64,000 nt of DNA from IMG/VR virus record IMGVR_UViG_3300005002_000001; one strand, given 5' to 3'. Shown here one piece after another: positions 646 to 42,773 of this stretch. Every line of letters starts with the position of its first letter. Position 1 is the first letter of the stretch. The notes under the pieces are model-generated. The model was not told where the DNA came from. It saw only the letters and a program-made list of their open reading frames with translations, and made no database searches. The position numbers and the translations under genes are program-made. This DNA is from a virus.

Positions 646-678
646 GTAATCCTCCGACGATCCTGATACGATGGTATC
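646..678 (+). promoter_or_regulatory. conserved phage promoter TGTAATC-N16-TACGAT, ATG ~6 nt downstream (leaderless)
   Basis: sequence gtgtaatcctccgacgatcctgatacgatggtatcATG; approximate coordinates. Confidence 0.55.
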
Positions 679-954
679 ATGGTGGAGGCAAACATGGTCG
701 GTACCAAGCTCACGATCGGCGCGGCTCGTTTCGACAGGGCTCCCTGGGAGTACAAGGAGTTCGGCTTCTTCGAGGTCACCGTCGACCGCGAGACGGACAA
801 GGCCGTCCGCGTGACCAGCGGCAAGCGCTGGTGCTGGCTCCCGAAGGCCGCCATCCGCAAGCCCGATCAGTGCCGGGCCTTCGTCTACGGGAAGCTGGTC
901 GAGGCCGGCATCCGGGAGAGCTACGCCGTCAATAACATCGGCGGGGTTTTGTAA
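679..954 (+). CDS. hypothetical protein
   Basis: track ORF immediately after promoter motif; internal GGAGG+ATG at 694 is an alternative start. Confidence 0.55.
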   Translation: MVEANMVGTKLTIGAARFDRAPWEYKEFGFFEVTVDRETDKAVRVTSGKRWCWLPKAAIRKPDQCRAFVYGKLVEAGIRESYAVNNIGGVL

Positions 955-983
955 TCGTCCGCGCTTCCTGGTAGAATGGTATC
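950..983 (+). promoter_or_regulatory. conserved promoter TGTAATC-N16-TAGAAT-N6-ATG
   Basis: ttttgtaatcgtccgcgcttcctggtagaatggtatcATG; nearly identical to the motif at 646. Confidence 0.55.
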
Positions 984-1577
984 ATGGTGGAGGCAACGAT
1001 GACCAAGAACGAGATCGTCCAGGGCGCGTACGCGATGGTCAACCAGCTGACGGACGAGCTGTCCCGTCTCCGCACGGCGGAGCGTAAGGCGCAGCACGAG
1101 GTCTGGAAGGCGAAGGGCGGGTGCGAGCGCTGCGGCGGTCGCGGCTGGATCGTCGTCTGGGACACGCTCGACTCCCTGAGCGGCTGCTACGCCGAGTATG
1201 GCTCGTGCCCTGAGGGTGACAAGTGCACCGCCTCGACGGTGGGCGCCGACCCGGGCTACTACGACCACAAGTACGATAACCTCCGCTGGCACAAGGACAC
1301 GTTCGTCCCGTCCGCCCAGATCGCCGCCGCCGAGCGCGAACTCAAGGACTGGCAGGAGACGCTGAAGGCGGCGCAGGACGACGCCAAGATCGCCAAGGGG
1401 AAGATCATCCGGGTCGTCCGCGGGCGCAAGGTGCCGCAGGGCACGACGGGCGAGTGCGTCTGGTTGGGCGCCGGGAAGTCCTACAGCTACTACGACCGCG
1501 GCGCCGACCGGGTCGGCATCAAGGACTCCAACGGGCAGGTCCACTGGACGGCGGCCTCCAACTGCGAGGTTGTGTGA
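984..1577 (+). CDS. zinc-ribbon protein with C-terminal SH3-like (GW/WT) domain
   Basis: CERCGG...C...C cysteine cluster; C-terminus VWLGAGKSYSYY...GQVHWTAAS resembles the paralogous GDL-WTV-GW family. Confidence 0.55.
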   Translation: MVEATMTKNEIVQGAYAMVNQLTDELSRLRTAERKAQHEVWKAKGGCERCGGRGWIVVWDTLDSLSGCYAEYGSCPEGDKCTASTVGADPGYYDHKYDNLRWHKDTFVPSAQIAAAERELKDWQETLKAAQDDAKIAKGKIIRVVRGRKVPQGTTGECVWLGAGKSYSYYDRGADRVGIKDSNGQVHWTAASNCEVV

Positions 1578-1584
1578 GCGTTTG

Positions 1585-1618
1585 TGTAATCTCGCCGACG
1601 AAGTGATAGGATAGATCC
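1585..1618 (+). promoter_or_regulatory. conserved promoter TGTAATC-N15-TAGGAT-N6-ATG
   Basis: tgtgtaatctcgccgacgaagtgataggatagatccATG. Confidence 0.55.
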
Positions 1619-1834
1619 ATGGCAACCAAGAAGGTCCACGTCCTCTCCGTCCAGTCCGAGTCCTGCGACCACTACGGTCCGTTCGTCTTCGCCGTCCGAC
1701 CCAACGTCGCTCAGCTGAAGACCTTCCTCAGGAAGAACACGTCCCCCGACGACGCCGACTTCTCGGCCGACGGTCCGGGCTGGCAGGGATCGTACCTGCA
1801 CCTGACCTGGTCGACCCGGACCGTGCACGAGTGA
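1619..1834 (+). CDS. hypothetical protein
   Basis: track ORF starting at predicted leaderless transcription start site. Confidence 0.55.
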   Translation: MATKKVHVLSVQSESCDHYGPFVFAVRPNVAQLKTFLRKNTSPDDADFSADGPGWQGSYLHLTWSTRTVHE

Positions 1835-1858
1835 GTGTAAAGAAGCGCTGAGCACTTC

Positions 1859-1892
1859 TGTAATCGCGAGCGAGTCCTGATAGGATTAAATC
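1859..1892 (+). promoter_or_regulatory. conserved promoter TGTAATC-N15-TAGGAT-N5-ATG
   Basis: tctgtaatcgcgagcgagtcctgataggattaaatcATG. Confidence 0.55.
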
Positions 1893-2066
1893 ATGGTCAA
1901 GCTGGTCCTCCCGCAGGAAGTCAAGATCGCCGTCCGACCCCTCAAGCTCGTCCCGTCCGAGGACGAGTACGATCGCATGTCCAAGATGGAGTGGCGCTTC
2001 GCCGTCCTGGACGCTCGGACCCAGGTGGGTCGGGCGCTCAACCAGTTCTTCTACGGAGGCAAGTGA
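1893..2066 (+). CDS. hypothetical small protein (57 aa)
   Basis: ATG 6 nt after -10 element; translated by hand MVKLVLPQEVKIAVRPLKLVPSEDEYDRMSKMEWRFAVLDARTQVGRALNQFFYGGK; stop overlaps next ATG. Confidence 0.5.
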   Translation: MVKLVLPQEVKIAVRPLKLVPSEDEYDRMSKMEWRFAVLDARTQVGRALNQFFYGGK

Positions 2067-2524
2067 TGGGCTACTGGATCGTCAAGGGCGGCGCCAAGGT
2101 CAACGGCAAGACCGTCTACCTCCAGGACCAGGGCATGCTCCGGACGGAGGACCAGCCGCGCGGCGGACCCGGGTTCTTCGGTCCCAAGAAGTCGGCCTTC
2201 CGCTTCGCCTCAGGCGAGCAGGCGACGCGAGCGACCCTGGGCATGCTCAACCTGGGACGCGGAGCTCTCCCGGTGGCCGTCGAGACGAAGAAGCCGCATC
2301 GCAGCTTCCTGGTCGATCAGGCCATCGCCGACCTGGAGCGGGACGTGGAGTACGAGTCCGACCTCCCCAAGGCGTACATGCAGCCCGACGACTGCTCCTA
2401 CCGCTGCAAGGCGGCTCTGCTCCGGTACGTCCGAGAGCTGGAAGCGGCCCTCAAGGCGGCGAGCAAGCCCAAGTCCCGGTACGAGACGGCCAACCGGCAC
2501 GAGTACGATTCCTCCAAGGCGTAG
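2066..2524 (+). CDS. hypothetical protein (N-terminal MGYWIVKGG motif)
   Basis: ATGA-coupled start inside track ORF 1991-2524. Confidence 0.5.
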   Translation: MGYWIVKGGAKVNGKTVYLQDQGMLRTEDQPRGGPGFFGPKKSAFRFASGEQATRATLGMLNLGRGALPVAVETKKPHRSFLVDQAIADLERDVEYESDLPKAYMQPDDCSYRCKAALLRYVRELEAALKAASKPKSRYETANRHEYDSSKA

Positions 2525-2558
2525 TGTAATCGTCCGCCCGGCGTGGTAAGATGGATTC
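2525..2558 (+). promoter_or_regulatory. conserved promoter TGTAATC-N16-TAAGAT-N6-ATG
   Basis: gtagtgtaatcgtccgcccggcgtggtaagatggattcATG. Confidence 0.55.
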
Positions 2559-3227
2559 ATGGTGGAGAGCAAGCAGATGCACAAGTCGGAGTTCGCGCGG
2601 ATCAGCAAGGCCGTCATCGCCCGCCTCATCGAGGCCGGACTGCCCCTGCGGCAGGACTCGCACGACGAGCTGGTCGCCCTGGTGGCCAGGCAAGACGATT
2701 ACTTCCACGACGTCCGCGCCGTGCTGAGCGTCGATCCCAAGGCGCGCTGGTCCGAGGACGCCCGGATCGACGTGACGGCCGACCGCAGCTGGGACAAGGA
2801 AGTGGACGAGGAGACGGGCGACGTCCTGGCCACGTCCAAGGTCAAGGTGACACTGCGCCTCAGCAGCTTCGAGGGCCCTCCCTCGGACGAGCTCTACGGT
2901 CGGCTGGACCTGACGCGCCAGGCCGTCGAGGCGTGCGAGAGCCTGCAGAAGGAGTTCGCCAAGGAGTACAAGTACGTCGTCCGCACGGCGGCGGAAGAGG
3001 CCGAGCGTCTGGCCAAGGAGGAGGCCGAGAACCGGCGCCTGAAGGTGCAGCGGATGGCCGAGTACCCGTCCAAGGGACTGCGCGCCGGCGGCAACGCCCG
3101 AACCGTCTCCCGCGAGCTCTTCACGGGCTGCCCGGACGGGACGTACGAGGTGAGCTACGATTCGGGCAAGCGCCAGTGCCGAGTGGTCCTCAGGCCGGGT
3201 AACGCCACCATCAGGAGGCTGGGATGA
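2559..3227 (+). CDS. hypothetical protein with C-terminal coiled coil
   Basis: track ORF; EEAERLAKEEAENRRLK heptad-like segment; alternative start at 2574 after GGAGAG. Confidence 0.55.
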   Translation: MVESKQMHKSEFARISKAVIARLIEAGLPLRQDSHDELVALVARQDDYFHDVRAVLSVDPKARWSEDARIDVTADRSWDKEVDEETGDVLATSKVKVTLRLSSFEGPPSDELYGRLDLTRQAVEACESLQKEFAKEYKYVVRTAAEEAERLAKEEAENRRLKVQRMAEYPSKGLRAGGNARTVSRELFTGCPDGTYEVSYDSGKRQCRVVLRPGNATIRRLG

Positions 3228-3472
3228 AGGTGCTGGAAGAGAAGCCCTGGACGCTGGAAGTGACGTGCGGAGAGTGCGGCTCCAAGCTCCAGGTGGAGAA
3301 GGACGACGTCCGAGCCGTGGAGTACGAGGTGTCGGACTGCGACCACACGGACTACAGCGCCATCTGCCCGGTGTGCAAGAGTCCGGTGGACCTGCCGACC
3401 AAGGACATCGCCGTCGGAGTCCGGGAGGAGGCCGTCAAGCGGTACCGCAAGAGCCGGAAGAGCCGGTGGTAG
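3224..3472 (+). CDS. zinc-ribbon protein
   Basis: CGECG...CPVC two CxxC pairs; ATGA overlap with upstream gene. Confidence 0.55.
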   Translation: MKVLEEKPWTLEVTCGECGSKLQVEKDDVRAVEYEVSDCDHTDYSAICPVCKSPVDLPTKDIAVGVREEAVKRYRKSRKSRW

Positions 3473-3893
3473 CCGCCGCCTGCAACGTTGCGGCAACTGG
3501 GGCCCCTGCAGAGCTGCAACGTCGTTGTAACAAGGGGCCCCTACGGGCCCCCTTCGGAGAGGCGAAAAAGGCCTAGGGGCCCGCCCCATTAAAGGGCCCC
3601 ATTAAAGTGGGGGGGCCGGGGGCAACCTTTGTGGGGCTTTTAACCACCTCCAGCGGGACCTAACCCCCTGCGGAAAATCTGGACCCTCCGCCGACTTTTC
3701 ACTCCACGCAGCGAGCGACCACGTTGATAAGCGTTTATTAGCAGCTCGAAAAAATGTAACCGAGGCCCACGTGCCCAAAAAATCTGGAAAAAAAGTGTCG
3801 GGCTTTTCAAGCCCTGCATCCTTGCATAGCAAGGACCTCGATCGACGAGGCCAATCGGCGCAGCATTCGCGTTTGAAACGCAATCCCACGCTC
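3473..3893. repeat. non-coding island dense in GC-rich palindromes and hairpins
   Basis: gcaacgttgc, ctgcagagctgca, ggggcccc (x2), gggccccc, short direct repeat ccattaaag (x2), hairpins gggcttttcaagccc and gcgtttgaaacgc; no convincing ORF. Confidence 0.5.
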
Positions 3894-4253
3894 ATGGAAG
3901 CGCTGGACGCCAGCATCGCGAAGGAGAAGGCGAAATTCCCGTTGGGCGTCATCGTCGCCCGGAATCACGCCGATCGAGCCGCGCTCAAGCTGGAAAAGAA
4001 TCCGGCCGAGCGGCCTCTGAGTTTTCCTCATGTTGATCAGTTGGACGAATGGCACCGAAACGTCCAAAAAGCTCGGGAAGCGACCTATTTTGTCGTCATC
4101 GATTCCCATTGGGACGCCGATTACTGCTATCTGTGGGTCGAGCTCATGGGACTGGGAGACCCCAGCGTCCGAGGCTGGTTGCGTAACCCGGAGACCAAAC
4201 TGATGCAGGTCGATCTGGAAAAGAAGAGAACGCGCCCGTGTAAAACACGCTGA
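3894..4253 (+). CDS. hypothetical protein (start uncertain)
   Basis: track ORF 3771-4253 trimmed to ATG 3894 because 3771-3890 is hairpin-rich. Confidence 0.35.
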   Translation: MEALDASIAKEKAKFPLGVIVARNHADRAALKLEKNPAERPLSFPHVDQLDEWHRNVQKAREATYFVVIDSHWDADYCYLWVELMGLGDPSVRGWLRNPETKLMQVDLEKKRTRPCKTR

Positions 4254-4278
4254 TCCCTTCAGGTTACTTTGCTTTCAA

Positions 4279-4773
4279 ATGCCGATCATCCTATCCACCC
4301 AACCCCAAGACATCGACATCGCCGAGGCCTACGCCTTGGACGTGTGCCAGTCCGATCCCCGCAAGAACCCCGAGACCTTTTACACCGGAGCTCTAGGCGA
4401 GCTCGCCTTCGCTCGTTGGGACGGGCCCGAGACTTACGACCGCTGCGTCGCGCACCTCCGTCGGGGCGCCGCTCCCGCCGCCGAGGACTGGCGTTACGAC
4501 TTCGTCTCCCGGCGTTCCTATCTGATCGACGTCAAGTCGGTGGGTTACGACAACGTCCGTCGGGGCTTCGGCGATATGCTCATCTCCAAGCCCGATCCCG
4601 ACGTCACCTACGTCCTCCTCTATTCCCTGGGCCCGAGCAATCGAGTCTTCGAATTCTCAGGTTGGGTCCTGGGCTCGCAGATCCACGATATGGCCCTCAA
4701 GCCACTGGCGCGCGACAATCACAAGTTCGTTCGGGTGCGCAAGCGCGATCTCAACCCGATCGACAAATGGTGA
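4279..4773 (+). CDS. hypothetical protein, possible PD-(D/E)xK-type nuclease
   Basis: GALGELAF ... DF ... YLIDVKS pattern resembles a restriction-endonuclease-like D...(D/E)xK core; weak. Confidence 0.3.
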   Translation: MPIILSTQPQDIDIAEAYALDVCQSDPRKNPETFYTGALGELAFARWDGPETYDRCVAHLRRGAAPAAEDWRYDFVSRRSYLIDVKSVGYDNVRRGFGDMLISKPDPDVTYVLLYSLGPSNRVFEFSGWVLGSQIHDMALKPLARDNHKFVRVRKRDLNPIDKW

Positions 4774-5138
4774 GCGCCCCGTCCTGGCGAGAGCTGCTGA
4801 GCGAGGTCTTGATGAATATCGTCCGTTGGATCGACATGAAGCTGGCTCCGGATCCCGGGCAGGTGCTGCGCCTGCGGCCGGGCCATTGGAACCCCGAGCC
4901 CTCCCTCGACATGACGCTGATCGCCCTGCATCGCGAATTTCCTAAGTGGAAGGCGCTCGATCACGCGTCCTACCGCATCTGGAAGAAGGCCGAGCTGCCT
5001 ACCCACTGGGTCGTCGTCGAGAAGCGCTGGCATCCCGAGGCCCAGCAGGTCTTTATCCGGCTGGTGTCGATGGGCGAGCGCGAGGTTCTGGGCTGGTGCC
5101 AGTACTTATACGAGCACTTCGACTGGGTCAAAGTTTAA
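4769..5138 (+). CDS. hypothetical protein
   Basis: ATGgTGA overlap start inside track ORF 4269-5138; the upstream part of that track ORF is Arg/Pro-rich GC artefact. Confidence 0.45.
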
Positions 5139-5163
5139 GGACGCCGACAAGAAATAGCTCTCG

Positions 5164-5197
5164 TGTATTCTCCGCGCCCTGGGTGTAAGATTGGGCT
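5164..5197 (+). promoter_or_regulatory. promoter variant TGTATTC-N15-TAAGAT-N6-ATG
   Basis: tcgtgtattctccgcgccctgggtgtaagattgggctATG. Confidence 0.45.
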
Positions 5198-5491
5198 ATG
5201 AGCCTGCAGTGCGTCGATCGTTCCTTCCCGCCTCGGGGAGCTTTGCTGGCCGGTGCGCGCGCCCAAGTTTTGGGCGACCTGGTCTCCTTCTATCGCACGC
5301 CGGAGTGGTCGAAGCGCGCTGATAACCACATCGGAGATTTTCGGACCGACGGCTTCTGGATCGTCCTGACGAAGCATCGGGATCGGACTCGTCTCATCTC
5401 TTTTCGTCCGGATCGGATCCGCCAGGTGTGCGGCTGGATCGAAAACATCGACCTGCGCTTCAAATTCGACCTCATTCGGAGCCGACCGTGA
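5198..5491 (+). CDS. hypothetical protein
   Basis: track ORF following promoter variant. Confidence 0.5.
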   Translation: MSLQCVDRSFPPRGALLAGARAQVLGDLVSFYRTPEWSKRADNHIGDFRTDGFWIVLTKHRDRTRLISFRPDRIRQVCGWIENIDLRFKFDLIRSRP

Positions 5492-5832
5492 GCATGCTGC
5501 AACGCCGACCGGGCGACGTCCTGCAAGGCGTCCTGCTGACGGGCAAGCTGGCTCCCTGGCCGCCTTACGTCCGGGCCAATCGAGTCCGCGTCTATCGGCG
5601 CATCGATCTCGAGCGTTCCCGAGGGATCGCCCGGGGCGAGCTCTTCCACCTCATCGGTTCTCGGGTCGAATACGACCTGTCGCGCCAGGGTTACTGGACG
5701 GTGCTCGAATACTTCCTGGGCGCCGCCCGCTATCGGGTGCTGCACGTCGATGAGATTCATAAGCTGCACGACGTCTTGATCAACGTCGGTGATATCGAGG
5801 ATACGAAACTCTTTCGCAAGGTGAACAGATGA
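5488..5832 (+). CDS. hypothetical protein with GYWTV motif
   Basis: GTGA overlap start (or ATG 5494); RQGYWTVLEY motif of the paralogous family. Confidence 0.45.
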   Translation: MSMLQRRPGDVLQGVLLTGKLAPWPPYVRANRVRVYRRIDLERSRGIARGELFHLIGSRVEYDLSRQGYWTVLEYFLGAARYRVLHVDEIHKLHDVLINVGDIEDTKLFRKVNR

Positions 5833-6119
5833 GCGACAAGCAGAGCAAGCAATCGGACCAACTGGACAGCTGGATGTCTATGCTGACGGACGACAAGGAG
5901 CGGGCCAGCGTCATCAAAGCCCAGATCGAGGCCAACGCCCAGACGGAGCGCGTGCGGGTCGAGCAGGTCGAGCAGTCCCGCCGGGCCGACATCGCCACCG
6001 ATGGCTTCCAGGGGTTTCGCATCGTCGCCGTCTTCGCCATCATGGCGGCCATCGCCGGTTCGACGTGCGTCGGCTATCACGCCATCGAGCTGAAGGCGGG
6101 CGCCTCCCAGCAGAAGTAG
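5829..6119 (+). CDS. small membrane-anchored protein with coiled coil
   Basis: ATGA overlap; C-terminal hydrophobic stretch FRIVAVFAIMAAIAGSTCVGY. Confidence 0.5.
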   Translation: MSDKQSKQSDQLDSWMSMLTDDKERASVIKAQIEANAQTERVRVEQVEQSRRADIATDGFQGFRIVAVFAIMAAIAGSTCVGYHAIELKAGASQQK

Positions 6120-6128
6120 GAGCTTTTC

Positions 6129-6542
6129 ATGGATCATCGGGAGCAGATCGCTCGACTCGTCGAGCTGCACGCCCAGGGCGTCATCTCTCGCCGGACCCTC
6201 ATCGAGGCGGCCGGTCTGGGCGACGTCATAAAGGACGACGAGGATAACAACGTGGCCGACGAGGTCGAGAATGTCGACGAGGACGACTTCCTGGATCGCA
6301 CCTATCCCCTGGGCGCGTTGATCCGGCCTAGAGTGCCGCTATCGGTCGGCATCAGCCTGTCGACCCGGCCCGGAGGCAAACCGCTGGCCGACGGCGAGCG
6401 CGCTCCCGTCGCCGTCCAAGTGAAGGCCTCGGGCTACTGGACCGTCGTCGCTCATCGCTCGGGGTGGACCAAGGTCGCCTCGGCCGACGGCCGCGGCGCG
6501 GGCTGGACCTTCTACGTCCGGGACTACTTTGAGCGCGTCTAA
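6129..6542 (+). CDS. GDL-WTV-GW family small protein (acidic linker + SH3-like C-terminus)
   Basis: SGYWTVVAHRSGWTKVASADGRGAGWTFYV; RBS aggag upstream. Confidence 0.6.
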   Translation: MDHREQIARLVELHAQGVISRRTLIEAAGLGDVIKDDEDNNVADEVENVDEDDFLDRTYPLGALIRPRVPLSVGISLSTRPGGKPLADGERAPVAVQVKASGYWTVVAHRSGWTKVASADGRGAGWTFYVRDYFERV

Positions 6543-6849
6543 GCGGAGCGATAAGCGGAGCGATTACATCGACTTTCGGCAGGGGGACCTGCTGGTCGGT
6601 CGACCCAACAAGCCCGAAGGCACTCTGCACCTGGAGAGACCTAATCGTTACACCCACACCCCGCAGCGACCCTGTCCCAACTATAGCTTTTCTCTGGACG
6701 AGTGCGTCGTCCTCATCCTGAGCGCCCAACGAGCCGGCAAGGACGCCTTCGCCGACTCCGAGGTCCTGGTCTCCGACTGTCGTCGGCAGAAGCTGATGCG
6801 TGGCTGGATGACCAATTACTACCTGATGAACGATTTTTGGATAGCATGA
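6529..6849 (+). CDS. hypothetical protein (FRQGDLLVGRP motif)
   Basis: track ORF, overlaps neighbours by a few nt. Confidence 0.4.
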   Translation: MSASKRSDKRSDYIDFRQGDLLVGRPNKPEGTLHLERPNRYTHTPQRPCPNYSFSLDECVVLILSAQRAGKDAFADSEVLVSDCRRQKLMRGWMTNYYLMNDFWIA

Positions 6850-7331
6850 GCAAGCGCAAGAAGCGCAACTGGACGGCGGCTCAGCAGGCCGTCTGGAAGG
6901 CGATCCTGGACGATATCAAACGCTGGACCATCCCGAACTGGATCTATGAGATGCAGTCCCTGGGCCTCTCCGTCCGGCGCGAGATGTACGGGGATTATGA
7001 CGAGGAGCATAGAGTCGTGAGCCTGAGCAAGTATCCCTTCGCACTGGGTACCCTGGTGAAGGTGCGACCGCGCAAGCCCTTTAAGGGCTCGATCGACGTC
7101 GTCCTGTCGGATAGGATGCGTTGGCCGCCCAAAGCCCGGGGCAAGAATGCCTACGCCTTCGGTGACAATAGGCGGGTGCCAGGCTGGGGTTACTGGACCG
7201 TCGTCGCTGTCGATCCCGTGCCGGGCGTAGGATTCTGGCACAAGATCGTCCGGGGAGACGGCGAGATGGGCTGGGTCGAGGACCTGCAGAAGGACTTCGT
7301 CGTCGTGAAACCCGAGGAAGAAACCAAGTAA
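6846..7331 (+). CDS. GDL-WTV-GW family protein
   Basis: ATGA start inside track ORF 6702-7331; GWGYWTVVAVDPVPGVGFWHKIVRGDGEMGWVED. Confidence 0.55.
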   Translation: MSKRKKRNWTAAQQAVWKAILDDIKRWTIPNWIYEMQSLGLSVRREMYGDYDEEHRVVSLSKYPFALGTLVKVRPRKPFKGSIDVVLSDRMRWPPKARGKNAYAFGDNRRVPGWGYWTVVAVDPVPGVGFWHKIVRGDGEMGWVEDLQKDFVVVKPEEETK

Positions 7332-7339
7332 TATTTCCG

Positions 7340-7519
7340 ATGGCGAAGCGTTCGAAGTTCGAAGAACAATGGACTCGGGAGCAGCTGCTGAGCGAGGTCC
7401 GAGAGCTCCGGGCGAGGAACGTCCGCCTCGAGCGGCGACTCGCCGAGCTGGAGGCCGCGCAAAAAGATAACTGCCTATCCGACGCTTCGCGTCGCGACAA
7501 CAGATTCGAACTCGCCTGA
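7340..7519 (+). CDS. small coiled-coil (leucine-zipper-like) protein, 59 aa
   Basis: hand translation MAKRSKFEEQWTREQLLSEVRELRARNVRLERRLAELEAAQKDN...; stop overlaps next ATG. Confidence 0.45.
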   Translation: MAKRSKFEEQWTREQLLSEVRELRARNVRLERRLAELEAAQKDNCLSDASRRDNRFELA

Positions 7520-8576: not shown

Positions 8577-9497
8577 ATGTATTACGTCGACACCCCGATC
8601 TTTCAGAATGACAAGGCTCGAATCAAAAATCAGATCGACGTCATCTCGGCTCAGCGCGCCAAGATCAAGGAGATCAAGCGGAAATTCCGATCCAAGCAGG
8701 ACCAGCGCCTTTTCGAATCGATACCTCAGCGTCTCAAAACTCTGACAGGCAAGCTCGAGCGACTGTCGAATCTGACGTGCCCGTCATGGGACTTGGTCCA
8801 CTATCTCCAGGCGTGCGACAATTCGCTGTGGGACGACCTACAGATCGACGCCTGGAACAAGACGCTGGCCAACCACGAAGGCAGGGGAGAGGCTTCCCTG
8901 CGACTCTGGTACGGACTCCCGGCCGCGGCAGCCACGACCGAGGACGTCGACCTGCCAGAGATCGACGGTGAAGCCAAGAACGCCCAGGGACGTCGCAAGG
9001 ATGGCAAGTTTCAGTTGCAGACCGTGCAAGCGGGCAAGAGCGGGCGCAAGGCTTACACTCGTTGGATGATGTATTCGGCCGAGCTCGGACTCTTCAAGGA
9101 CCTACCTGAAAATGTGAGGGAGGCTCTCGCCGAAGGAGAGCTGTCCCAAAGCATCATCTACGGCGCGCTCCCCCAAGAACTGAAGGAATCGTTGCTCGGA
9201 GCCGTCCTGCCGTCGATCGTCTTTACGAGATACGAGTTCATCGATTTCACGACTAGGAACGGATTCCTGCACGTCATCAACACTGATTTCGATTCCGCTC
9301 TGAGCTTTCAATGCATCACCAAATGCGGACCCAAGTACGCTCTCAAAAAAGAATACCTCGTCAATCGCCTGCGGCGATCCCGGGCGTTCGTCGCCACGCG
9401 CGAGGCCCTGCATCTGCTTTCTCTCAAGGAACGGGTCTCCTTGATGAAATCGAAAAACTGTAATCCTGCATCGCCGAAGGTACAATCAGCAGCATGA
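8577..9497 (+). CDS. hypothetical protein
   Basis: AGGAG 7 nt upstream of ATG 8577; long ORF (track 8418-9497 trimmed). Confidence 0.5.
   Translation: MYYVDTPIFQNDKARIKNQIDVISAQRAKIKEIKRKFRSKQDQRLFESIPQRLKTLTGKLERLSNLTCPSWDLVHYLQACDNSLWDDLQIDAWNKTLANHEGRGEASLRLWYGLPAAAATTEDVDLPEIDGEAKNAQGRRKDGKFQLQTVQAGKSGRKAYTRWMMYSAELGLFKDLPENVREALAEGELSQSIIYGALPQELKESLLGAVLPSIVFTRYEFIDFTTRNGFLHVINTDFDSALSFQCITKCGPKYALKKEYLVNRLRRSRAFVATREALHLLSLKERVSLMKSKNCNPASPKVQSAA
9458..9493 (+). promoter_or_regulatory. conserved promoter TGTAATC-N16-TACAAT-N8-ATG
   Basis: ctgtaatcctgcatcgccgaaggtacaatcagcagcATG, embedded in 3' end of upstream gene. Confidence 0.5.
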
Positions 9498-10583: not shown

Positions 10584-10617
10584 TGTATTCCCCCGCCGCT
10601 CCTGGTATGATAAGGCT
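10584..10617 (+). promoter_or_regulatory. promoter variant TGTATTC-N16-TATGAT-N6-ATG
   Basis: ccgtgtattcccccgccgctcctggtatgataaggctATG. Confidence 0.45.
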
Positions 10618-11124
10618 ATGGGAGGAATCATCGTGTGCGAACGATACTGCTCGCGGCAGGATTACGATAAGGATCTGCTTGCTCGAGCCAAGTTCTCGAT
10701 GGCCGTCCTCAATCGAGCTCCCGACGAGGACGAGGATCCCACTCTCCAAGGCGAGCTCATCACGATGGATCGTCTCGACTGTTGGGACCTTCTGAAGCGT
10801 GCCAAACTCGCTCTCGAATTCTTCTATCCGCACTTTCGAATCCACGACGAGATCATCGCCCGAGCCCGAGAGGACTGGGACTGGCGCTTCAAGGAGTTCT
10901 TCTCTCGGCTCTTCCGTTGGGATTGGAAGGATCGCGACGGGCATGCGCTCGTCGTGAAGCATGAGAAGATGATCGCCGGCTTCGAGCGCATGCTCGGGCA
11001 GGTCTCCTCCACTCAGCACAATCGCATCGAGATCGAGACGAAGGTCGTCCGCGCGGCACGCAACTGGATCAAATGGCACGATTCCGAATTGGGTCGCTGC
11101 AACTTCCGAGGAGCATATCGATGA
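10618..11124 (+). CDS. hypothetical protein
   Basis: ATG at predicted leaderless start; the 5' part of track ORF 10300-11124 is artefact. Confidence 0.5.
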   Translation: MGGIIVCERYCSRQDYDKDLLARAKFSMAVLNRAPDEDEDPTLQGELITMDRLDCWDLLKRAKLALEFFYPHFRIHDEIIARAREDWDWRFKEFFSRLFRWDWKDRDGHALVVKHEKMIAGFERMLGQVSSTQHNRIEIETKVVRAARNWIKWHDSELGRCNFRGAYR

Positions 11125-12846: not shown

Positions 12847-12881
12847 TGTAATCTCGGCTTCTCGGGGCTTATGATGGTCCC
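12847..12881 (+). promoter_or_regulatory. conserved promoter TGTAATC-N16-TATGAT-N5-ATG
   Basis: gttgtaatctcggcttctcggggcttatgatggtcccATG. Confidence 0.5.
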
Positions 12882-13067
12882 ATGCTAGCGGCAATTGCGT
12901 GGGCCTATGAGACTCTCGAAGCCAACGATCAGATGACGGCGGCCGAGCTCAAGGAGCAGTATCGCTGGTTCATGAAGACGTACCACCCGGACAATCCGGA
13001 GACAGGCGACGTCCAGATCTATCGCAACGCCATCGAGGCGTGGAAGATCCTCAGCAGGGAGATTTGA
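12882..13067 (+). CDS. J-domain mini-protein (DnaJ-like, HPD motif)
   Basis: ELKEQYRWFMKTYHPDNPETGD...IYRNAIEAWKIL matches the J-domain helix II-HPD loop-helix III pattern. Confidence 0.55.
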   Translation: MLAAIAWAYETLEANDQMTAAELKEQYRWFMKTYHPDNPETGDVQIYRNAIEAWKILSREI

Positions 13068-15242: not shown

Positions 15243-15856
15243 AAGGCCCGCAGGACGAATACGACATTCTCGCCCGTCAACTGGATGACCTCGTCTATTA
15301 TCGGAAGAACCTTCGTTCTGGGCCCTCCTTTAACATGTGGGAGCAGGACTTCTCCGGCAAGGTCAAGTACCGAGACTTCGAATACGAAGAGTCTCGCCTG
15401 ATGGACAAAGAGGTCGACATTCGAGTGCGAATGGAAGAGCTCCGGCGCCGACAGCGCGGGCTCAACGAGCAGCGTCTCAATCCAGCTTCGGGTTGTCGAC
15501 TCGACGAGCTCTACCCAACTCTACCCGCTCCGGGAGCGTTGCTTCGATTCGATCTGACCAATAAAAGCGAGGGTCGTTGGCGTTACAAGCCCGATAAGCA
15601 GCAGGTGGGAGAGGGTGATCCGGGTTATCGAAATCTCGCCATCGGCGTCAAATCGTTCAGAACCTCGACGGGGGAGATGTCCTGGTCGCTCGAGAGCCCG
15701 TTCGTATTGGCGCATCCCGACGCGGCAATCATTCTTCTCCCGTGCGAGCCCGTTCTGATCGGCGATCATACGCCCTTTGTCAAGATCATGGTCAATACGG
15801 TTCGTCGTGATTCCGAAATTCTTTGGTCACCGGTTTCCGACCTGGTGATCGTGTAA
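15239..15856 (+). CDS. hypothetical protein
   Basis: ATGA start inside track ORF 15179-15856. Confidence 0.5.
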   Translation: MKGPQDEYDILARQLDDLVYYRKNLRSGPSFNMWEQDFSGKVKYRDFEYEESRLMDKEVDIRVRMEELRRRQRGLNEQRLNPASGCRLDELYPTLPAPGALLRFDLTNKSEGRWRYKPDKQQVGEGDPGYRNLAIGVKSFRTSTGEMSWSLESPFVLAHPDAAIILLPCEPVLIGDHTPFVKIMVNTVRRDSEILWSPVSDLVIV

Positions 15857-15936
15857 TCCTTAGGCTGTCTATTATAGAGTAGGACTACGTTAACCAACCG
15901 GCCCCGAAAGGGCCAAACGAAAAGAGAACAGAACAC
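15853..15936 (+). promoter_or_regulatory. TGTAATC promoter plus ~50-nt leader with hairpin and purine-rich RBS upstream of the vault-protein gene
   Basis: cgtgtaatcctt...; leader hairpin ggccccgaaagggcc (~15899-15913); aaaagagaacagaacacATG. Confidence 0.45.
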
Positions 15937-26310: not shown

Positions 26311-26544
26311 ATGGAAGGCGACTTGTTGATCAAACTAAACGAGGAAGTCGATGAAGACATCGTTTATAAGGGTCGTTACTACGTGGTCATCGACATCGAA
26401 AAAGATGATGACTACGTTTTGACATCGGTGGCTAGCACGAGAGTGTTGGGCGGAGTCGAATTTGAAGAACGACTTGATGGTCATCGCGGTGACGCGCTTG
26501 GTGACTTCGGCTTTCGAAGAGTGTGTAATGGAAAGTCTCGTTAG
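26311..26544 (+). CDS. small acidic SH3-like protein (GDL family)
   Basis: MEGDLLIKLN...GRYYVVIDIEKDDDYVLTSVAS; start ATG 26311 inside track ORF 26197-26544. Confidence 0.4.
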   Translation: MEGDLLIKLNEEVDEDIVYKGRYYVVIDIEKDDDYVLTSVASTRVLGGVEFEERLDGHRGDALGDFGFRRVCNGKSR

Positions 26545-26559
26545 TCTATAATCATACCA
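26524..26559 (+). promoter_or_regulatory. promoter variant TGTAATG-N15-TATAAT-N8-ATG
   Basis: gtgtgtaatggaaagtctcgttagtctataatcataccaATG. Confidence 0.45.
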
Positions 26560-26814
26560 ATGGCGGCCGTGACCGTCGTATGGTCGAAGGGCTGGTTTTT
26601 AGCAGGCTCGCTAACGAAACCGATAGAGCCCGATGCAGATCTAAAAGACCCGGACGAGGTGGAGACCGCGTGGGGTTACGACAGCTACAGTATTCGCCGG
26701 CTTTCTAGCTTACCCGACCTCAAGTACGAGGTCCTCCTTAAAGACGAGGACGACGAGTCAGTCGCGCAGCAATTGCTCGACGACTTACTAGACTCCCTGG
26801 AGACACAAAGATGA
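26560..26814 (+). CDS. hypothetical acidic protein
   Basis: track ORF; ATGA overlap with next. Confidence 0.5.
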   Translation: MAAVTVVWSKGWFLAGSLTKPIEPDADLKDPDEVETAWGYDSYSIRRLSSLPDLKYEVLLKDEDDESVAQQLLDDLLDSLETQR

Positions 26815-35503: not shown

Positions 35504-35988
35504 AAAACAGAAGACCGGTCACGAAGGGCAAAGCGGCCAGGGGTTGGAACGATCGCCACACTTACAGCCCGCCTCCCAATCCTTTTGTCACCAAGACGAA
35601 GGTAGAAGCGGGCACGTACATGATGGCTCCCGATTCGGCCGACAAGGCGACGGAACTCTATGCGAGTCGAGGCATCTGGGGCGGGATCCCGCTCAATATG
35701 CAGATTCGAGAACTCAAGCCCGATGGCACGACGCGATTGGATTCGAATCGCCAGATCCAATCAAACGAACCATTCTTCGTGACCGGTCAGTCTTACGTGT
35801 CAAAGCAAGGAAACGTCGTCCTTGTCGAAATTATCCCTCCCGATGGATATCCCGGATGGATCGAGATTCGTCGAGCAGACGACGTGATACACGGTCACCA
35901 GTCATTCAACGATATCGCTAATGAGACTGTCAAGTATTGGTTTACTCAGACGTTCTCGGGCAAAAAGCGACGACAGAGCGATCGATAG
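35500..35988 (+). CDS. hypothetical protein
   Basis: ATGA start inside track ORF 34921-35988. Confidence 0.45.
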   Translation: MKNRRPVTKGKAARGWNDRHTYSPPPNPFVTKTKVEAGTYMMAPDSADKATELYASRGIWGGIPLNMQIRELKPDGTTRLDSNRQIQSNEPFFVTGQSYVSKQGNVVLVEIIPPDGYPGWIEIRRADDVIHGHQSFNDIANETVKYWFTQTFSGKKRRQSDR

Positions 35989-36319
35989 GAACCAGTTCGA
36001 AACCGAACGGTTTCTTTGACGCGTCTCGAGATTGATCGGTGTCGACTAAAAACCAAACAATCCTGTCCTTGTAGAGACAATTAATACCAACGAAGGTAGG
36101 AGAATTCATCCACGGCCTGATGTCGTCACCGATGCATGTGATGTAACTCTCGTCGGGAAAGTGATCGAGTCCTCTGAGGCCACCCGTCGATGGGTTGAAT
36201 TCTAGAGGATTGGGTTGGCCGTCCCAGAAAGCCGGAGCGCAATTTCTATCATGCTCGTTTCTGATGATCAAAAAGCTCTGTCCCGGAGTCCAAGCTGCTA
36301 TGTCGCGACGCGGATCCAC
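35942..36319 (-). CDS. hypothetical protein (only plausible ORF in 36.0-36.3 kb gap)
   Basis: track ORF on minus strand filling an otherwise empty 350-bp gap; no motif support. Confidence 0.3.
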   Translation of the reverse strand: MDPRRDIAAWTPGQSFLIIRNEHDRNCAPAFWDGQPNPLEFNPSTGGLRGLDHFPDESYITCIGDDIRPWMNSPTFVGINCLYKDRIVWFLVDTDQSRDASKKPFGFELVPIDRSVVAFCPRTSE

Positions 36320-36342
36320 TTACTTACATTATAGGACATTTG

Positions 36343-36708: not shown

Positions 36709-36736
36709 TCGAAAACTCGGCACGTGAGTAATTCTT

Positions 36737-36997: not shown

Positions 36998-37001
36998 TGC
37001 G

Positions 37002-37223
37002 ATGCTTCTCAAATGGGAAGACGTCCGACGAGGGGATCTTATCGCTCTGAGCGGGCAGCATTACTTTGTCTTCAAGGTCAAAGAGCACGACATCGACGGC
37101 CCGCCTCCGGGTCCCGAACGTTTTTGGTCCGTCTATTACATCGACTCGTTTGACGAAAAGCACCCGATGAAGACGTTGCGAACCTTCGAACCCGAAGCGA
37201 TGCTGCTTCAAAGAAAAAGATGA
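37002..37223 (+). CDS. SH3-like small protein (GDL family)
   Basis: RRGDLIALSGQHYFVFKVKEHDIDG; start inside track ORF 36960-37223. Confidence 0.4.
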   Translation: MLLKWEDVRRGDLIALSGQHYFVFKVKEHDIDGPPPGPERFWSVYYIDSFDEKHPMKTLRTFEPEAMLLQRKR

Positions 37224-37636
37224 GAAGTCGACGTCGCAATCGTGGCCAGGCAAAGAAGGCGAGGCTCAATCGAGTCCGCCAGGTGGGAGAGCTTGTCATT
37301 CTGACGAACGATTCGTGGGCCTTCAACGGCGGGAAAGTGCCAGTTACTCGGTTTTCTGATTACATCGCATTCGCAGGCGAGGACAAAAAGGCCCGACGAG
37401 CTGATGGGACGCCCATGCCTGATCGTAATGGTGACAGCATCCGGATGAGTTTGCCCAACAAATGTCTGGGCGTCTTTTTGGGTCACGAACGGGTCAGAAT
37501 CGGAGAGCACTGGGGTCTGATGGGAGGGTATCGAATCCTCGTAGAGAACACCGAATATATTGTTCCTCCCGGTTACGTTCATTTCGTTTTGGACGGTAGC
37601 TATAGAACGATGTACGGCGAAATCGTTGCCGTGTAA
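37220..37636 (+). CDS. hypothetical basic protein
   Basis: ATGA start; track ORF. Confidence 0.5.
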   Translation: MRSRRRNRGQAKKARLNRVRQVGELVILTNDSWAFNGGKVPVTRFSDYIAFAGEDKKARRADGTPMPDRNGDSIRMSLPNKCLGVFLGHERVRIGEHWGLMGGYRILVENTEYIVPPGYVHFVLDGSYRTMYGEIVAV

Positions 37637-37690
37637 TCATCTACCATCGTGTGTTAGATAGATACTAAGGTCCGACCAAGGAGCCGACAC
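37633..37690 (+). promoter_or_regulatory. TGTAATC promoter with longer leader
   Basis: ccgtgtaatcatctaccatcgtgtgttagatagatactaaggtcc... Confidence 0.35.
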
Positions 37691-37858
37691 ATGAAGTTTC
37701 AAGATGTCAAGGATTCGCTGGGGCGAGTAGCCAAGAAGCTTTTCTCACCCAAGACCGTCGCCGTGCTAGGAGCAGCCGTCGCGCTCTTTCAGTTCGCCAT
37801 GGCCATCGAGGAGATGCGCAACTCTCTGAGCGACGATGAGGGGGACGACGACCGCTAG
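37691..37858 (+). CDS. small membrane protein (55 aa)
   Basis: hand translation MKFQDVKDSLGRVAKKLFSPKTVAVLGAAVALFQFAMAIEEMRNSLSDDEGDDDR. Confidence 0.4.
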   Translation: MKFQDVKDSLGRVAKKLFSPKTVAVLGAAVALFQFAMAIEEMRNSLSDDEGDDDR

Positions 37859-37877
37859 GCCGCCGTAAGGGTGTGCC

Positions 37878-40777: not shown

Positions 40778-40893
40778 AAGAAGATTCCCTCTTCGTCAAA
40801 TCGATCTGGTGGTTTCTGATCTATATCGTCCTCATCGGAACGATATTGCTAGCGACTCCATTAGGAATGGCTCTCATATTTTCGAGATAATCG

Positions 40894-41208
40894 ATGTCGA
40901 ACGTCGAATTGCCCACCAGCAACAGCATCTATCCCGGTTGTCTCGTCGCCCTCAACGACAAGAATAGCTACTACGCCAACCGAGTCATTTTGCTCGAAAA
41001 GCACCCAAGAGAAGTCAAAACTTCCGACGCAACCCGTGTCTTGCCCCTCGAGCAGAATTCAATCGGAGTCGCGATCGAAATCTTTCCAAACGCTCTCGTC
41101 AGAAAATCAGAAAGGACCTGGCTCGTCTATTTCCATCCGAAGATGGCGGTCGTCGAGCAGTCAAGGTTACGTAGGGTATCGTTCTCCTGGAGGGAAATCA
41201 ACAAATGA
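40894..41208 (+). CDS. hypothetical protein
   Basis: track ORF. Confidence 0.45.
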   Translation: MSNVELPTSNSIYPGCLVALNDKNSYYANRVILLEKHPREVKTSDATRVLPLEQNSIGVAIEIFPNALVRKSERTWLVYFHPKMAVVEQSRLRRVSFSWREINK

Positions 41209-41269
41209 TCCTTCAGGGCCTTACAACGTACGATACTTATGATTACCTTGTTTGATTGAGGAGAAAGAC

Positions 41270-41575
41270 ATGTCGAACCTTTTCAAGGCCCCGAGCGTCA
41301 GTGCGGCTGTTTTCAGCGATACCGATCTCAAAAAGATGTCGACCTTGTGGTATGGAAACACCGACCTCAAGGGGGAAGCCGTCAAAGAAAAGTGGAAAGA
41401 CGTGATCGGAGAAGAGAACGCTTATCTCTTCGTCAAGAGGCTGCGTCAGACGGTTCTCTCTTACAAGGAACACATCAAGAAGCTCTACAAGATCGATCCT
41501 GATGAGCGCGAAAAGTTCGAACAGGACATGGTCAATACGATCGTGGCCCTGGAGTCGGCTTTCACACTCAATTGA
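41270..41575 (+). CDS. hypothetical protein
   Basis: AGGAGAAAG RBS 5 nt before ATG 41270 (track ORF 41252-41575 uses TTG). Confidence 0.5.
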   Translation: MSNLFKAPSVSAAVFSDTDLKKMSTLWYGNTDLKGEAVKEKWKDVIGEENAYLFVKRLRQTVLSYKEHIKKLYKIDPDEREKFEQDMVNTIVALESAFTLN

Positions 41576-41582
41576 AAGTTCG

Positions 41583-41617
41583 TGTATTGACCATCCCAGC
41601 CAGGATAGGATGATACT
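41583..41617 (+). promoter_or_regulatory. promoter variant TGTATTG-N16-TAGGAT-N6-ATG
   Basis: cgtgtattgaccatcccagccaggataggatgatactATG. Confidence 0.45.
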
Positions 41618-41869
41618 ATGATAGAGCTTGGTGATCTAGTCGTCTTCACACCCTGTCAACGAAATTGCTCTCAGTTATTAAAGCTAGCGGGCAAAGTAGC
41701 TTTCAGAAATCTAAGAGAGCAAGTATCATGCGGCGTAGTCATCGATCGCTTTAGCAAAAGCGAAGGTACAACTCTTAGAGTCATTTTTCCGGAAGGCTCT
41801 TACAGCATGGATATCAATCAAGTGACTACCGTTAGCAAGTGGTACGTCGGTTCGCTAAATAAACTGTAA
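41618..41869 (+). CDS. SH3-like small protein (GDL family)
   Basis: MIELGDLVVFTPCQ...CGVVIDRFSKSEGTTLRVIF. Confidence 0.5.
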   Translation: MIELGDLVVFTPCQRNCSQLLKLAGKVAFRNLREQVSCGVVIDRFSKSEGTTLRVIFPEGSYSMDINQVTTVSKWYVGSLNKL

Positions 41870-41913
41870 TCGACGGATCACGGAGCCATTATTATAGGAA
41901 GTAGGTGCGTCAT
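41865..41913 (+). promoter_or_regulatory. TGTAATC promoter upstream of second metzincin
   Basis: aaactgtaatcgacggatcacggagccattattataggaagtaggtgcgtcatATG. Confidence 0.4.
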
Positions 41914-42738
41914 ATGGCTTCAAAATTTTTCGGTTCCGTCCTTCGTACTCTTTCGAAGGCGAGTTTGCTTCTCCTCTTTCCGGTAGCCCTCGTTAGTACA
42001 TGCAACGGTTGCCATCCGACAAAAACGGCAGAGTCGCTCGGAAAGGCGCAGCAGGCAGCCCAGGTCGAACCGATCATCAAAGGTCGAGTACTCATTGATC
42101 CCGAGTTCAGCGGACCGGAACGAGAGTTGATCCTGAAGGGGATTCGTATGTGGACGAATCCCCTTTCTGACGTTTTGAAGATGGAGGTCTCGGATAATCC
42201 GGGACGAGAAGCCTTTGAGAACGACATGCAGCAGCGAATGATTTTGGCTCAGGAACGGGCAGCATCCGGCTTGCCCGAACCCGAAGAGGACGAGGAGGAT
42301 ACGTGGGTCGATCCCCATAGCAAGTGGAACTCCTTCGATCCCCGGGCTCCTTTCTGGAGCATGTCCGAAGGTTGCAGCAGCGCTGTTCTCATCCTTCGAT
42401 TTACCAGTGACAGTCCTGTCGTCAAAGCCGTCGAAAAGGCAGTCTCAGGCAACGGTCACGGCGTGCTCTACGGTCATACCAACAACAGCTGCCATAGAAA
42501 AGCCATCATGCTGGTCGCCGATCGTCTCAAGACGGCCGACGAGTTTACCGAGGTCTTCGCCCACGAATTCGGACACGTCCTGGGACTCAGGCACGATTTC
42601 GAGAGCGACGTCAGCATCATGCATCCCGAGGACAAGTCAACGCGCTGCGTCACTCGTCGAGATGTCAGTTCTTTCTGCGCGCGTTGGAACTGTCCCAAGC
42701 ACCGCCCCTATATGTCGGAATCACGATCCTGCGGTTGA
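41914..42738 (+). CDS. secreted zinc metalloprotease, metzincin type
   Basis: signal peptide; HEFGHVLGLRH (HExxHxxGxxH) followed by SIMHP Met-turn; track ORF 41905 trimmed to ATG. Confidence 0.65.
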   Translation: MASKFFGSVLRTLSKASLLLLFPVALVSTCNGCHPTKTAESLGKAQQAAQVEPIIKGRVLIDPEFSGPERELILKGIRMWTNPLSDVLKMEVSDNPGREAFENDMQQRMILAQERAASGLPEPEEDEEDTWVDPHSKWNSFDPRAPFWSMSEGCSSAVLILRFTSDSPVVKAVEKAVSGNGHGVLYGHTNNSCHRKAIMLVADRLKTADEFTEVFAHEFGHVLGLRHDFESDVSIMHPEDKSTRCVTRRDVSSFCARWNCPKHRPYMSESRSCG

Positions 42739-42773
42739 TGTAAACGATCTGCTACCCATGGTATGATAGTGCC
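42738..42773 (+). promoter_or_regulatory. promoter variant TGTAAAC-N16-TATGAT-N8-ATG
   Basis: gatgtaaacgatctgctacccatggtatgatagtgccATG. Confidence 0.45.

Follow-up and report, generated by a model that had tools for sequence, protein, structure and literature searches.

Promoter classes with a phage-specific consensus, leaderless phage mRNAs and gene shuffling mediated by promoter copies are each already known, and the closest described systems come from phage T4, from Thermus phages and from bacterial leaderless genes. The early promoters of T4 form a tight phage-specific consensus that is used by the unmodified host polymerase (PMC2988021). [quoted passage not shown] In the T4 units called PeSL, which join a promoter to a stem-loop terminator, the promoter copies also serve as crossover points for the gain and loss of single genes (PMC2839356, PMC4122927). 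T4 middle promoters carry a phage-specific asymmetric box, the MotA box, which replaces the -35 element near -30 and is combined with a stringent -10 element and, in many members, with the extended -10 motif TGn (PMC2988021, PMC6755090). In Thermus phage P23-45 one promoter class is made of TGn and a -10 box (PMC7403470), and the phylum of its host abounds in leaderless genes. Bacterial leaderless genes can be recognised by a TANNNT box about 10-12 nt 5' of the start codon; Actinobacteria, Deinococcus-Thermus and delta-proteobacteria have many of them (PMC3160421). Here we describe a promoter family from a stretch of 64,000 nucleotides of IMG/VR record IMGVR_UViG_3300005002_000001 (hereafter the window), in which the heptamer TGTAATC stands at the -35 position and a -10 hexamer lies directly before the start codon. 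The family shares traits with all of these systems, and its consensus is new.

Exact copies of TGTAATC occur 18 times in the window, against 4.46 expected from dinucleotide-preserving shuffles (largest shuffle 10). Sixteen of the copies are on the + strand and 13 stand in a promoter-like context, followed by a -10-like hexamer and then an ATG; the five outside such a context (6568 and 37364 on the - strand, and 47614, 49367 and 52392) correspond to the level of chance. The composite pattern TGTA[AT][AT][CG]-N14-17-TAnn[AT]T-N5-7-ATG matches 15 times on the + strand and nowhere on the - strand, and a block-wise first-order Markov simulation of 500 runs gave a mean of 0.034 matches and a maximum of 2. 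A reading of the window from its sequence only had listed 18 instances of the promoter and had expected the motif to exceed its frequency in shuffled DNA; all 18 coordinates were recovered within 1 nt, and both counts bear out the expectation.

Fifteen of the 18 instances share a single geometry (Table 1). The heptamer occupies -34 to -28, is asymmetric and non-palindromic, and is found in one orientation and at two spacings only, 15 nt from the -10 hexamer at 10 sites and 16 nt at 5, which is the range first reported. A TAnn[AT]T hexamer is present at all 15 sites, as in sigma70-type extended -10 promoters, and at nine of them it is preceded, one base upstream, by the TG of the extended -10 motif, a feature that the sequence-only reading did not mention. 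Between the hexamer and the start codon are 6 nt at 12 sites, 5 nt at one and 7 nt at two. The start codon is always ATG, with no earlier ATG in its ORF, and the ORFs are at least 50 codons long. Looked at from the other side, TAnn[AT]T stands 5-7 nt before such an ORF-first ATG at 19 sites in the window, and 15 of these have a heptamer variant at the fixed distance. The copies had been described as near-identical, which holds for the heptamer and the -10 core but not for the spacers, which differ from copy to copy.

All promoter copies lie in a + strand block of accessory genes, in its GC-rich part (~62%) as well as in the part with ~50% GC, and at the window's left end five of them share a span of 2 kb. 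No site lies among the large genes of the - strand block (44.6-64 kb). We conclude that the promoter family is real, that it occurs only among the small accessory genes of the + strand block, and that it is owned by the phage, as had been proposed from its presence in both compositional parts.

Five related contigs of uncultured phages have the same element at orthologous genes. A syntenic NCBI metagenome contig of 240,834 bp (JAXOUH010011742.1, GCA_034680565.1, here L178) encodes a major-vault-like protein that is 79% identical to that of the window; a second relative, IMGVR_UViG_3300044998_000776, has one protein at 92% identity, and further close relatives are the short contigs L341-L344. 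In L178 the element precedes the major-vault-like gene, the 2-oxoglutarate (2OG) oxygenase gene, the gene after it and the orthologue of the gene that starts at 26560, and the NCBI gene calls, which are independent of our predictions, begin exactly at the predicted ATGs. In the related locus L061 it precedes the RNA ligase gene and recurs at the counterparts of the sites at 37632, 41583 and 41865. The promoter-dense region runs on past the window's left end, and L341-L344 have 6-8 promoters per 4-7 kb. Together, the window and six related loci supply 45 distinct promoter sequences, and their consensus is G-TGTAATC-N12/13-TGn-TAnGAT-N6-ATG. The exact heptamer is present in 32 of the 45, a G directly 5' of it in 35 and the TG in 36. 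The spacer measures 15 nt in 34 sequences and 16 nt in 11, and the gap to the ATG is 6 nt in 40; the -10 box TAnGAT is TAGGAT in 16 cases, TAAGAT in 10 and TATGAT in 9.

For a comparison without ascertainment on the relative's side, orthologues were located by their coding sequence only and the DNA upstream was then aligned, in 17 pairs. Between orthologues, mismatches amount to 0/68 in TGTA, 5/48 in ATC, 2/34 in the TG, 0/34 at T1A2 and 2/34 at A5T6 of the -10 box, and 0/51 in the ATG. The mismatch rate is 0.35 at position 3 of the -10 box, 0.25 in the spacer and 0.32 in the upstream flank, and it is 0.185 at third codon positions. The heptamer, the TG and the key -10 positions are thus constrained beyond synonymous sites, as is predicted for a functional promoter, and these alignments indicate that the promoter is under purifying selection in the relatives.

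Phages whose major-vault-like protein is 60-71% identical have leaderless TGnTAnnAT-N6-ATG sites in which the -35 position holds a less strict GTGnA(A). No such sites were found in low-GC phages with a major-vault-like protein of ~40% identity; LR756500 and LR756501 (44% identity), also low in GC, were tried and set aside as being without the motif. Strict pattern scans of viral and metagenome contig collections returned only single matches at the level of chance, besides one known relative; the exact motif is therefore limited to a small clade, and the window's own contig is absent from these collections. A search of the literature on the heptamer as a phage promoter retrieved nothing relevant.

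The 6-nt gap that separates the -10 box from the ATG places the predicted transcription start on the A of the ATG, so that the mRNAs should be leaderless. The sequence-only reading had predicted this for the whole family. The geometry agrees at 15 sites, where the -10 box ends ~6-7 nt before the start and leaves no room for a Shine-Dalgarno sequence; it does not at 15852, 37632 and 41865, which belong to the family and are leadered. The spacing of -10 box, 6 nt and ATG is that of bacterial leaderless genes (PMC3160421), including those of mycobacteria (PMC4633059), and the G-rich -10 interior (TAGGAT, TAAGAT, TATGAT) is that of high-GC bacteria. Leaderless promoters of hosts, however, have little or no conserved -35 element, whereas the heptamer is fixed here, and some copies are followed by GGAG and a second in-frame ATG. 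GGAG or GAGG lies 4-14 nt after the 5' ATG in 9 of 38 distinct promoters, against a background of 8.5%, and 5-6 of these promoters have a second ATG 12-18 nt downstream; it is in frame without exception, also where orthologues show a difference of 6 nt. Gene callers often picked this second ATG in the relatives (L341, L343). Because a Shine-Dalgarno-like GGAG with a second in-frame ATG would also make ordinary initiation possible, translation of such dual-start genes may use the leaderless route as well as the Shine-Dalgarno one. The combination of GTGGAG(G) and a second in-frame ATG is seen at 679-699, 984-1004 and 2559-2582 of the window and at L343 974, L343 2993 and L344 1331.

Set beside the described systems, the family by its sequence belongs neither to the MotA-box class nor to the canonical -35/-10 promoters; it does fit the sequence definitions of extended -10 promoters and of leaderless gene starts, and in function it would correspond to an early or middle promoter class of a phage. 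It has in common with T4 middle promoters an asymmetric phage-specific box that replaces the -35 element near -30, a stringent -10 box and many members with TGn. The MotA box, (a/t)(a/t)(a/t)TGCTTtA at 12 +/- 1 bp from the -10 element (PMC2988021), is nevertheless unrelated in sequence to the box found here, GTGTAATC, which lies 15-16 bp away. The early mRNAs of T4 have Shine-Dalgarno leaders, whereas the mRNAs here are predicted to be leaderless, and TGTAATC, in contrast to the T4 early -35 box, is a poor match to TTGACA. The extended -10 promoters of Thermus phages are without a conserved element at the -35 position, which here is taken by a near-invariant heptamer, and Thermus phages are not related to the window phage by sequence (megablast). 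In the case of phiYS40, middle and late mRNAs were reportedly found by Sevostyanova et al. in 2007 to be leaderless, with transcripts that start at the start codon.

Most probably, the family consists of sigma70-type extended -10 promoters of one temporal class, early or pre-replicative. Regions 3.0 and 2.4 of sigma70-family primary sigmas read TGn and TAnGAT, respectively, and a holoenzyme with a housekeeping-type sigma would read them here in the same way. We slightly favour, at a probability of about 0.5, that the host primary sigma reads the heptamer, which would serve early promoters as a -35 element specific to the lineage. A single protein domain would contact the heptamer (-34 to -28), and we lean towards region 4 of the host primary sigma; in a 17-nt spacer frame the sequence becomes nTGTAA, which keeps T-34, G-33 and A-30 of TTGACA. 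Transcription would start at the A of the ATG and yield an mRNA with no 5' untranslated region (5'UTR), which would be translated by the leaderless route, with ribosomes binding the 5'-terminal AUG. The ~40-bp repeats would also act as crossover points at which promoter-plus-gene cassettes are gained or lost. That the heptamer is asymmetric, in fixed orientation and at two spacings suggests a single domain within the initiation complex rather than a dimeric regulator, and the want of a palindrome points likewise to a monomeric reader, either sigma region 4 or a MotA-like adaptor.

Reading by the host sigma is favoured by the crowding of promoters in front of tiny ORFs towards one end of the block, a layout that resembles an early or host-takeover region, by the canonical spacing, by the degenerate box in the relatives and by the failure to find a phage factor. 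It is also favoured by the precedent of the T4 early promoters, whose tight consensus is compatible with an unmodified polymerase, and the looser GTGnA(A) of the distant relatives suggests a common and fairly tolerant reader. Leaderless mRNAs imply a host that handles such mRNAs well; the G-rich -10 interior and the high GC content at third codon positions (GC3) of many genes fit a high-GC host.

Several observations weigh against this view. The start sites are predicted from geometry only, and the temporal class is proposed from gene content and layout only. The heptamer departs from TTGACA at -32 and -31, its conserved T-29 and C-28 fall outside the usual -35 hexamer, and it carries far more information than ordinary -35 boxes do. 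A canonical -35 element, with at least 4/6 of TTGACA at 16-18 nt from the -10 box, is not what the family has, the typical nTGTAA giving 3/6. A generic sigma70 scan for the consensus (TTGACA-N17-TATAAT type) detects only two members, 950 and 12847, both as TTGTAA, and its totals are at chance (6 vs 4.4, 12 vs 10.4). A good extended -10 box would make the heptamer dispensable for the host polymerase, so that its strong constraint hints at a dedicated reader. No host could be assigned from the bacterial homologues of the major-vault-like protein, in Myxococcota, Riflebacteria and Chloroflexi, or from their leaderless promoters, which have an extended -10 box and no GTGTAA-type -35 element.

A dedicated reader specified by the phage, as the sequence-only reading had suggested in proposing a phage-directed sigma or a MotA-like activator, is a serious possibility, though we think it less probable than reading by the host sigma. 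Such a reader could be a sigma whose region 4 has diverged, or an activator that acts as a monomer together with an anti-sigma factor, as MotA of T4 does with AsiA. The sigma would have housekeeping-like regions 2 and 3, the -10 box and TGn being read as usual, and the family would be a middle (delayed-early) class switched on by the product of a truly early gene. This would account for a heptamer that is near-invariant over 7-8 positions, non-canonical and extends to -28, in a setting where a good extended -10 box makes a -35 element dispensable. The box is centred near -31 and the MotA box at -30, and the excellent -10 box with frequent TGn is as in T4 middle promoters (PMC2988021); asymmetry and fixed orientation, again, point to a monomeric reader. 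The lone TTGAGA promoter of the same block, at 38820, could then represent the early class. Its spacer had been given as 18 nt and is 17 nt, and the use of host sigma70 that it was said to show is an interpretation rather than a result. RpoD-like sigma genes, moreover, occur in some distant jumbo phages that carry a major-vault-like gene: the products of L254 13912-14601 and L241 13855-14529 are 46-50% identical to the C-terminal region of E. coli RpoD, and L253 2759-3346 gives a weaker match (24%). In these three distant, low-GC phages the RpoD-like gene lies a few kb from the major-vault-like gene.

The phage ownership of the family has held up; neither the window nor the sampled DNA of its relatives yielded the proposed phage factor. 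Searches of Pfam, PHROGs and PDB sequences found no relative of sigma, MotA or AsiA among ~100 ORFs of the window, which is 64 kb of a genome of probably ~240 kb. A tblastn search with the RpoD C-terminal region was negative in the window, L002, L003, L061 and L178-L190, which cover part of the genome. Pfam (E up to 5) and PDB sequence searches with ten larger unannotated window proteins, three of them encoded downstream of the TTGAGA promoter, returned nothing, although searches by similarity would miss MotA or AsiA analogues that have no sequence similarity to them. The differences from the MotA box in sequence and in distance to the -10 box, already described, also count against a phage-specified reader, as do the densest clusters, which lie at one end of the block in front of tiny ORFs and look immediate-early, and the looser box of the relatives, which argues against a tightly co-evolving specific factor. 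In its fullest form, which we regard as equally tentative, this account would give the jumbo-phage clade a promoter code of its own: a phage-specified reader of GTGTAATC at -31 (a sigma with altered region 4, or a MotA-like adaptor without similarity to known ones), a host-type TGnTAnGAT, obligatory leaderless initiation, and a 40-bp unit that doubles as a terminator-less single-gene recombination cassette and often as the preceding stop codon.

It is unlikely that the promoter is an extended -10 element only and that the heptamer is an operator overlapping the -35 position, for example for a repressor that shuts off the early class. Extended -10 promoters do work without a -35 element, P23-45's middle and late promoters being of this class (PMC7403470), and an operator would explain strong constraint on a box that the host polymerase does not strictly need. 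Repressor operators are usually dyad-symmetric, however, whereas the heptamer is asymmetric and present in single copy; the distance to the -10 box is fixed at 15-16 nt, as is usual for elements read inside the initiation complex, and the 6 of 15 window sites without TGn would need some contact at -35. We give very little credence to a non-regulatory origin, in which the element is the remnant of duplications at gene-cassette junctions. Promoter copies do bound insertions and deletions, and some share additional sequence, such as those at 645 and 950. Yet spacers and flanks vary and only the heptamer, the TG and TA..AT are kept, the constraint between orthologues is site-specific and stronger than at synonymous sites, and the element is locked to an ORF-first ATG by a 6-nt gap and precedes unrelated genes across 42 kb. 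Two other readings were rejected: a site of the NtcA/CRP type (TGTA-N8-TACA), because the second half-site is absent, and an archaeal BRE/TATA arrangement, because the conserved box that precedes the ATG by 6 nt is a bacterial -10 element with TGn and because Shine-Dalgarno-like GGAGG is used elsewhere.

Promoter copies coincide with gene ends and with the borders of variable genes. At four sites the upstream ORF takes its stop codon from the TAA in TGTAATC, ending at 954, 15856, 37636 and 41869, so that the end of one gene and the promoter of the next overlap (950-956, 15852-15858, 37632-37638, 41865-41871). Comparing window positions 645-996 and 1585-1886 with L342, L343 and L344, we found that 692-949, within gene 679-954, is missing from all three contigs and that 1613-1858 is missing from L343. 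The junctions of these cassette insertions and deletions lie inside promoter copies that align to both flanking promoters. At promoter 1585, L342 has an extra gene of ~200 nt, inserted with its junction in the spacer. The window thus shares with the T4 early region and its PeSL units numerous sigma70-type promoters with a tight phage-specific consensus, their position before small ORFs in a plastic region, and promoter copies that serve as crossover points for the gain and loss of single genes. A repeated promoter with recombination indels in a hyperplastic region is present here, but the stem-loop terminator adjacent to it in PeSL is not: the 57 nt that precede each of the 18 sites fold no more strongly than shuffles do (mean z 0.03), and a scan of the window for intrinsic terminators stayed at the level of chance, with no excess.

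Table 1. Promoters of the TGTAATC family and other candidate promoter sites in the window. Numbers in brackets after start codons give their first position.
Position	Strand	Arrangement	Gene and remarks
645..681	+	TGTAATC-N15-(TGa)TACGAT-N6-ATG(679)	ORF 679-954; then GTGGAGG and second in-frame ATG at 694
950..986	+	TGTAATC-N15-(TGg)TAGAAT-N6-ATG(984)	heptamer TAA is stop of ORF 679-954; second in-frame ATG at 999
1585..1621	+	TGTAATC-N15-(TGa)TAGGAT-N6-ATG(1619)	
1859..1895	+	TGTAATC-N15-(TGa)TAGGAT-N6-ATG(1893)	
2525..2561	+	TGTAATC-N15-(TGg)TAAGAT-N6-ATG(2559)	second in-frame ATG at 2577
5164..5200	+	variant TGTATTC-N15-TAAGAT-N6-ATG(5198)	orthologue at L343 5352 with identical heptamer variant
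9459..9496	+	TGTAATC-N15-TACAAT-N7-ATG(9494)	without TGn
10584..10620	+	variant TGTATTC-N15-(TGg)TATGAT-N6-ATG(10618)	
12847..12884	+	TGTAATC-N16-TATGAT-N6-ATG(12882)	
15852..15939	+	leadered: TGTAATC-N16-TAGAGT(15875-15880), 5'UTR ~50 nt, ATG(15937)	major-vault-like gene; heptamer TAA is stop of ORF 15179-15856; L178 orthologue TGTAAAC-N16-TATAAT
18864..18899	+	TGTAATC-N15-(TGa)TAGGAT-N5-ATG(18897)	
22560..22597	+	TGTAATC-N16-(TGa)TAGGAT-N6-ATG(22595)	2OG-Fe(II) oxygenase gene; orthologue at L178 17172
23228..23264	+	TGTAATC-N15-TAGAAT-N6-ATG(23262)	orthologue at L178 17840
26524..26562	+	variant TGTAATG-N16-TATAAT-N7-ATG(26560)	L178 orthologue has TGTAATC
37632..37693	+	leadered: TGTAATC-N16-TAGATA, leader ~25 nt with AAGGAG, ATG(37691)	heptamer TAA is stop of ORF 37220-37636; heptamer, -10 and entire leader kept in L061
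38820..38857	+	TTGAGA-N17-TAAGAT-N6-ATG(38855)	single canonical-like -35; leaderless geometry; conserved in L061
41583..41620	+	variant TGTATTG-N16-TAGGAT-N6-ATG(41618)	orthologue at L061 2693 with same variant
41865..41907	+	leadered: TGTAATC, CATTAT/TATTAT, AGGAAG, GTG(41905)	metallopeptidase gene; heptamer TAA is stop of ORF 41618-41869; L061 has TGTAATT
42739..42776	+	variant TGTAAAC-N16-(TGg)TATGAT-N6-ATG(42774)	T4-type RNA ligase gene; L061 has consensus TGTAATC and TGaTAAGAT
20974-20988	+	TATTTAA before ATG	ORF 20986-21267
22545-22532	-	TATTTAA before ATG	ORF 21584-22534
44952-44939	-	TATTTAA before ATG	ORF 44597-44941
29196-29182	-	TATAAT before ATG	gene 28381-29184
36333-36317	-	TATAAT before GTG	gene 35942-36319

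The window is part of an uncultured jumbo phage, since its closest relatives are contigs of uncultured phages. Megablast of 20 kb against a collection of known phages gave no match, and tblastn of window proteins gave remote matches only, to huge uncultured phages and one Microcystis phage. Exact protein look-ups with three window genes found no match for two of them and, for the third, one 1.5-kb JGI contig only. No tRNA genes were found in the window, nor any match to an Rfam family. Positions 1-44.4 kb hold ~85 + strand genes, mostly small, few of which can be annotated: these encode a major-vault-protein-like protein, an SPFH protein, a 2OG-Fe(II) oxygenase, Thg1, an ADP-ribosylglycohydrolase, a T4-type RNA ligase, a metallopeptidase, a dCMP deaminase, a tRNA-synthetase-like protein and DnaJ. 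From 44.6 to 64 kb the window holds large - strand genes that match no phage protein family, plus endonuclease VII. Nine successive - strand proteins are encoded at 44597-62999, seven of them large (283-1159 aa), with no PHROGs match for any; those of 44946-46124, 46133-47389 and 61482-62999 also have no Pfam match, and two of the nine, compared with known phages by tblastn, gave weak matches only. The sole recognisable protein beside this block is the endonuclease VII (201 aa, 62999-63604).

Base composition varies along the window. The genes of its left end (1-8000) and the major-vault-like gene (15937-18585) have 61-65% GC and a GC3 of up to 0.94, and most other genes have ~50-55% GC and a GC3 of ~0.6, falling to 44% GC at the right end. 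This heterogeneity suggests that genes of different origin or age are combined in one phage. The major-vault-like protein itself (+ strand, 882 aa) has an MVP shoulder (Pfam MVP_shoulder, E = 7.9e-30), a vault repeat and SPFH/Band 7 domains, and a second SPFH protein is encoded at 31167-32102. The major-vault-like protein has >6,000 homologues in public data. Copies at 60-96% identity lie on large phage-like contigs of up to ~440 kb, some of them in the viral collection, and copies at ~49% identity are chromosomal, in Myxococcota, Riflebacteria and Chloroflexi. The 5'UTR of the gene (15881-15936) contains a hairpin, GGCCC-loop-GGGCC, with a counterpart at 9975-10000 of L178, in which the stem is conserved and the loop differs (CGAAA vs TGTG); it is possibly a 5' stabilising stem-loop.

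Other promoter classes may exist beside the heptamer family. TATTTAA occurs three times in the window, always 4-5 nt before the ATG of an ORF (Table 1); two of the sites share TATTTAAAGCCATG, and gaTATTTAAgtccATG precedes the homologue of gene 20986 at L178 6403. These sites are possibly another leaderless class with an AT-rich, -10-only box, reminiscent of the T4 late TATAAATA, with too few copies for statistics. Two - strand genes within the + strand block have TATAAT 6-8 nt before their starts, without the heptamer, and these could be further leaderless promoters of yet another class.

The promoter family provides a precise and testable regulatory signal for a group of never-cultured giant phages, nearly all of whose proteins lack annotation. 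It marks one temporal gene class and fixes the true start codons, several of which are misplaced by automatic gene callers, and it restricts the host to bacteria in which leaderless mRNA is translated well. Should the heptamer prove to have its own reader, promoter-specificity switching would gain a new example beyond the T4, SPO1 and Thermus phage models; if the heptamer is read by the host sigma, it would reveal a preference for a non-TTGACA -35 element in an unstudied host. The promoter-bounded insertions and deletions of gene cassettes extend the PeSL idea beyond T4-type phages.

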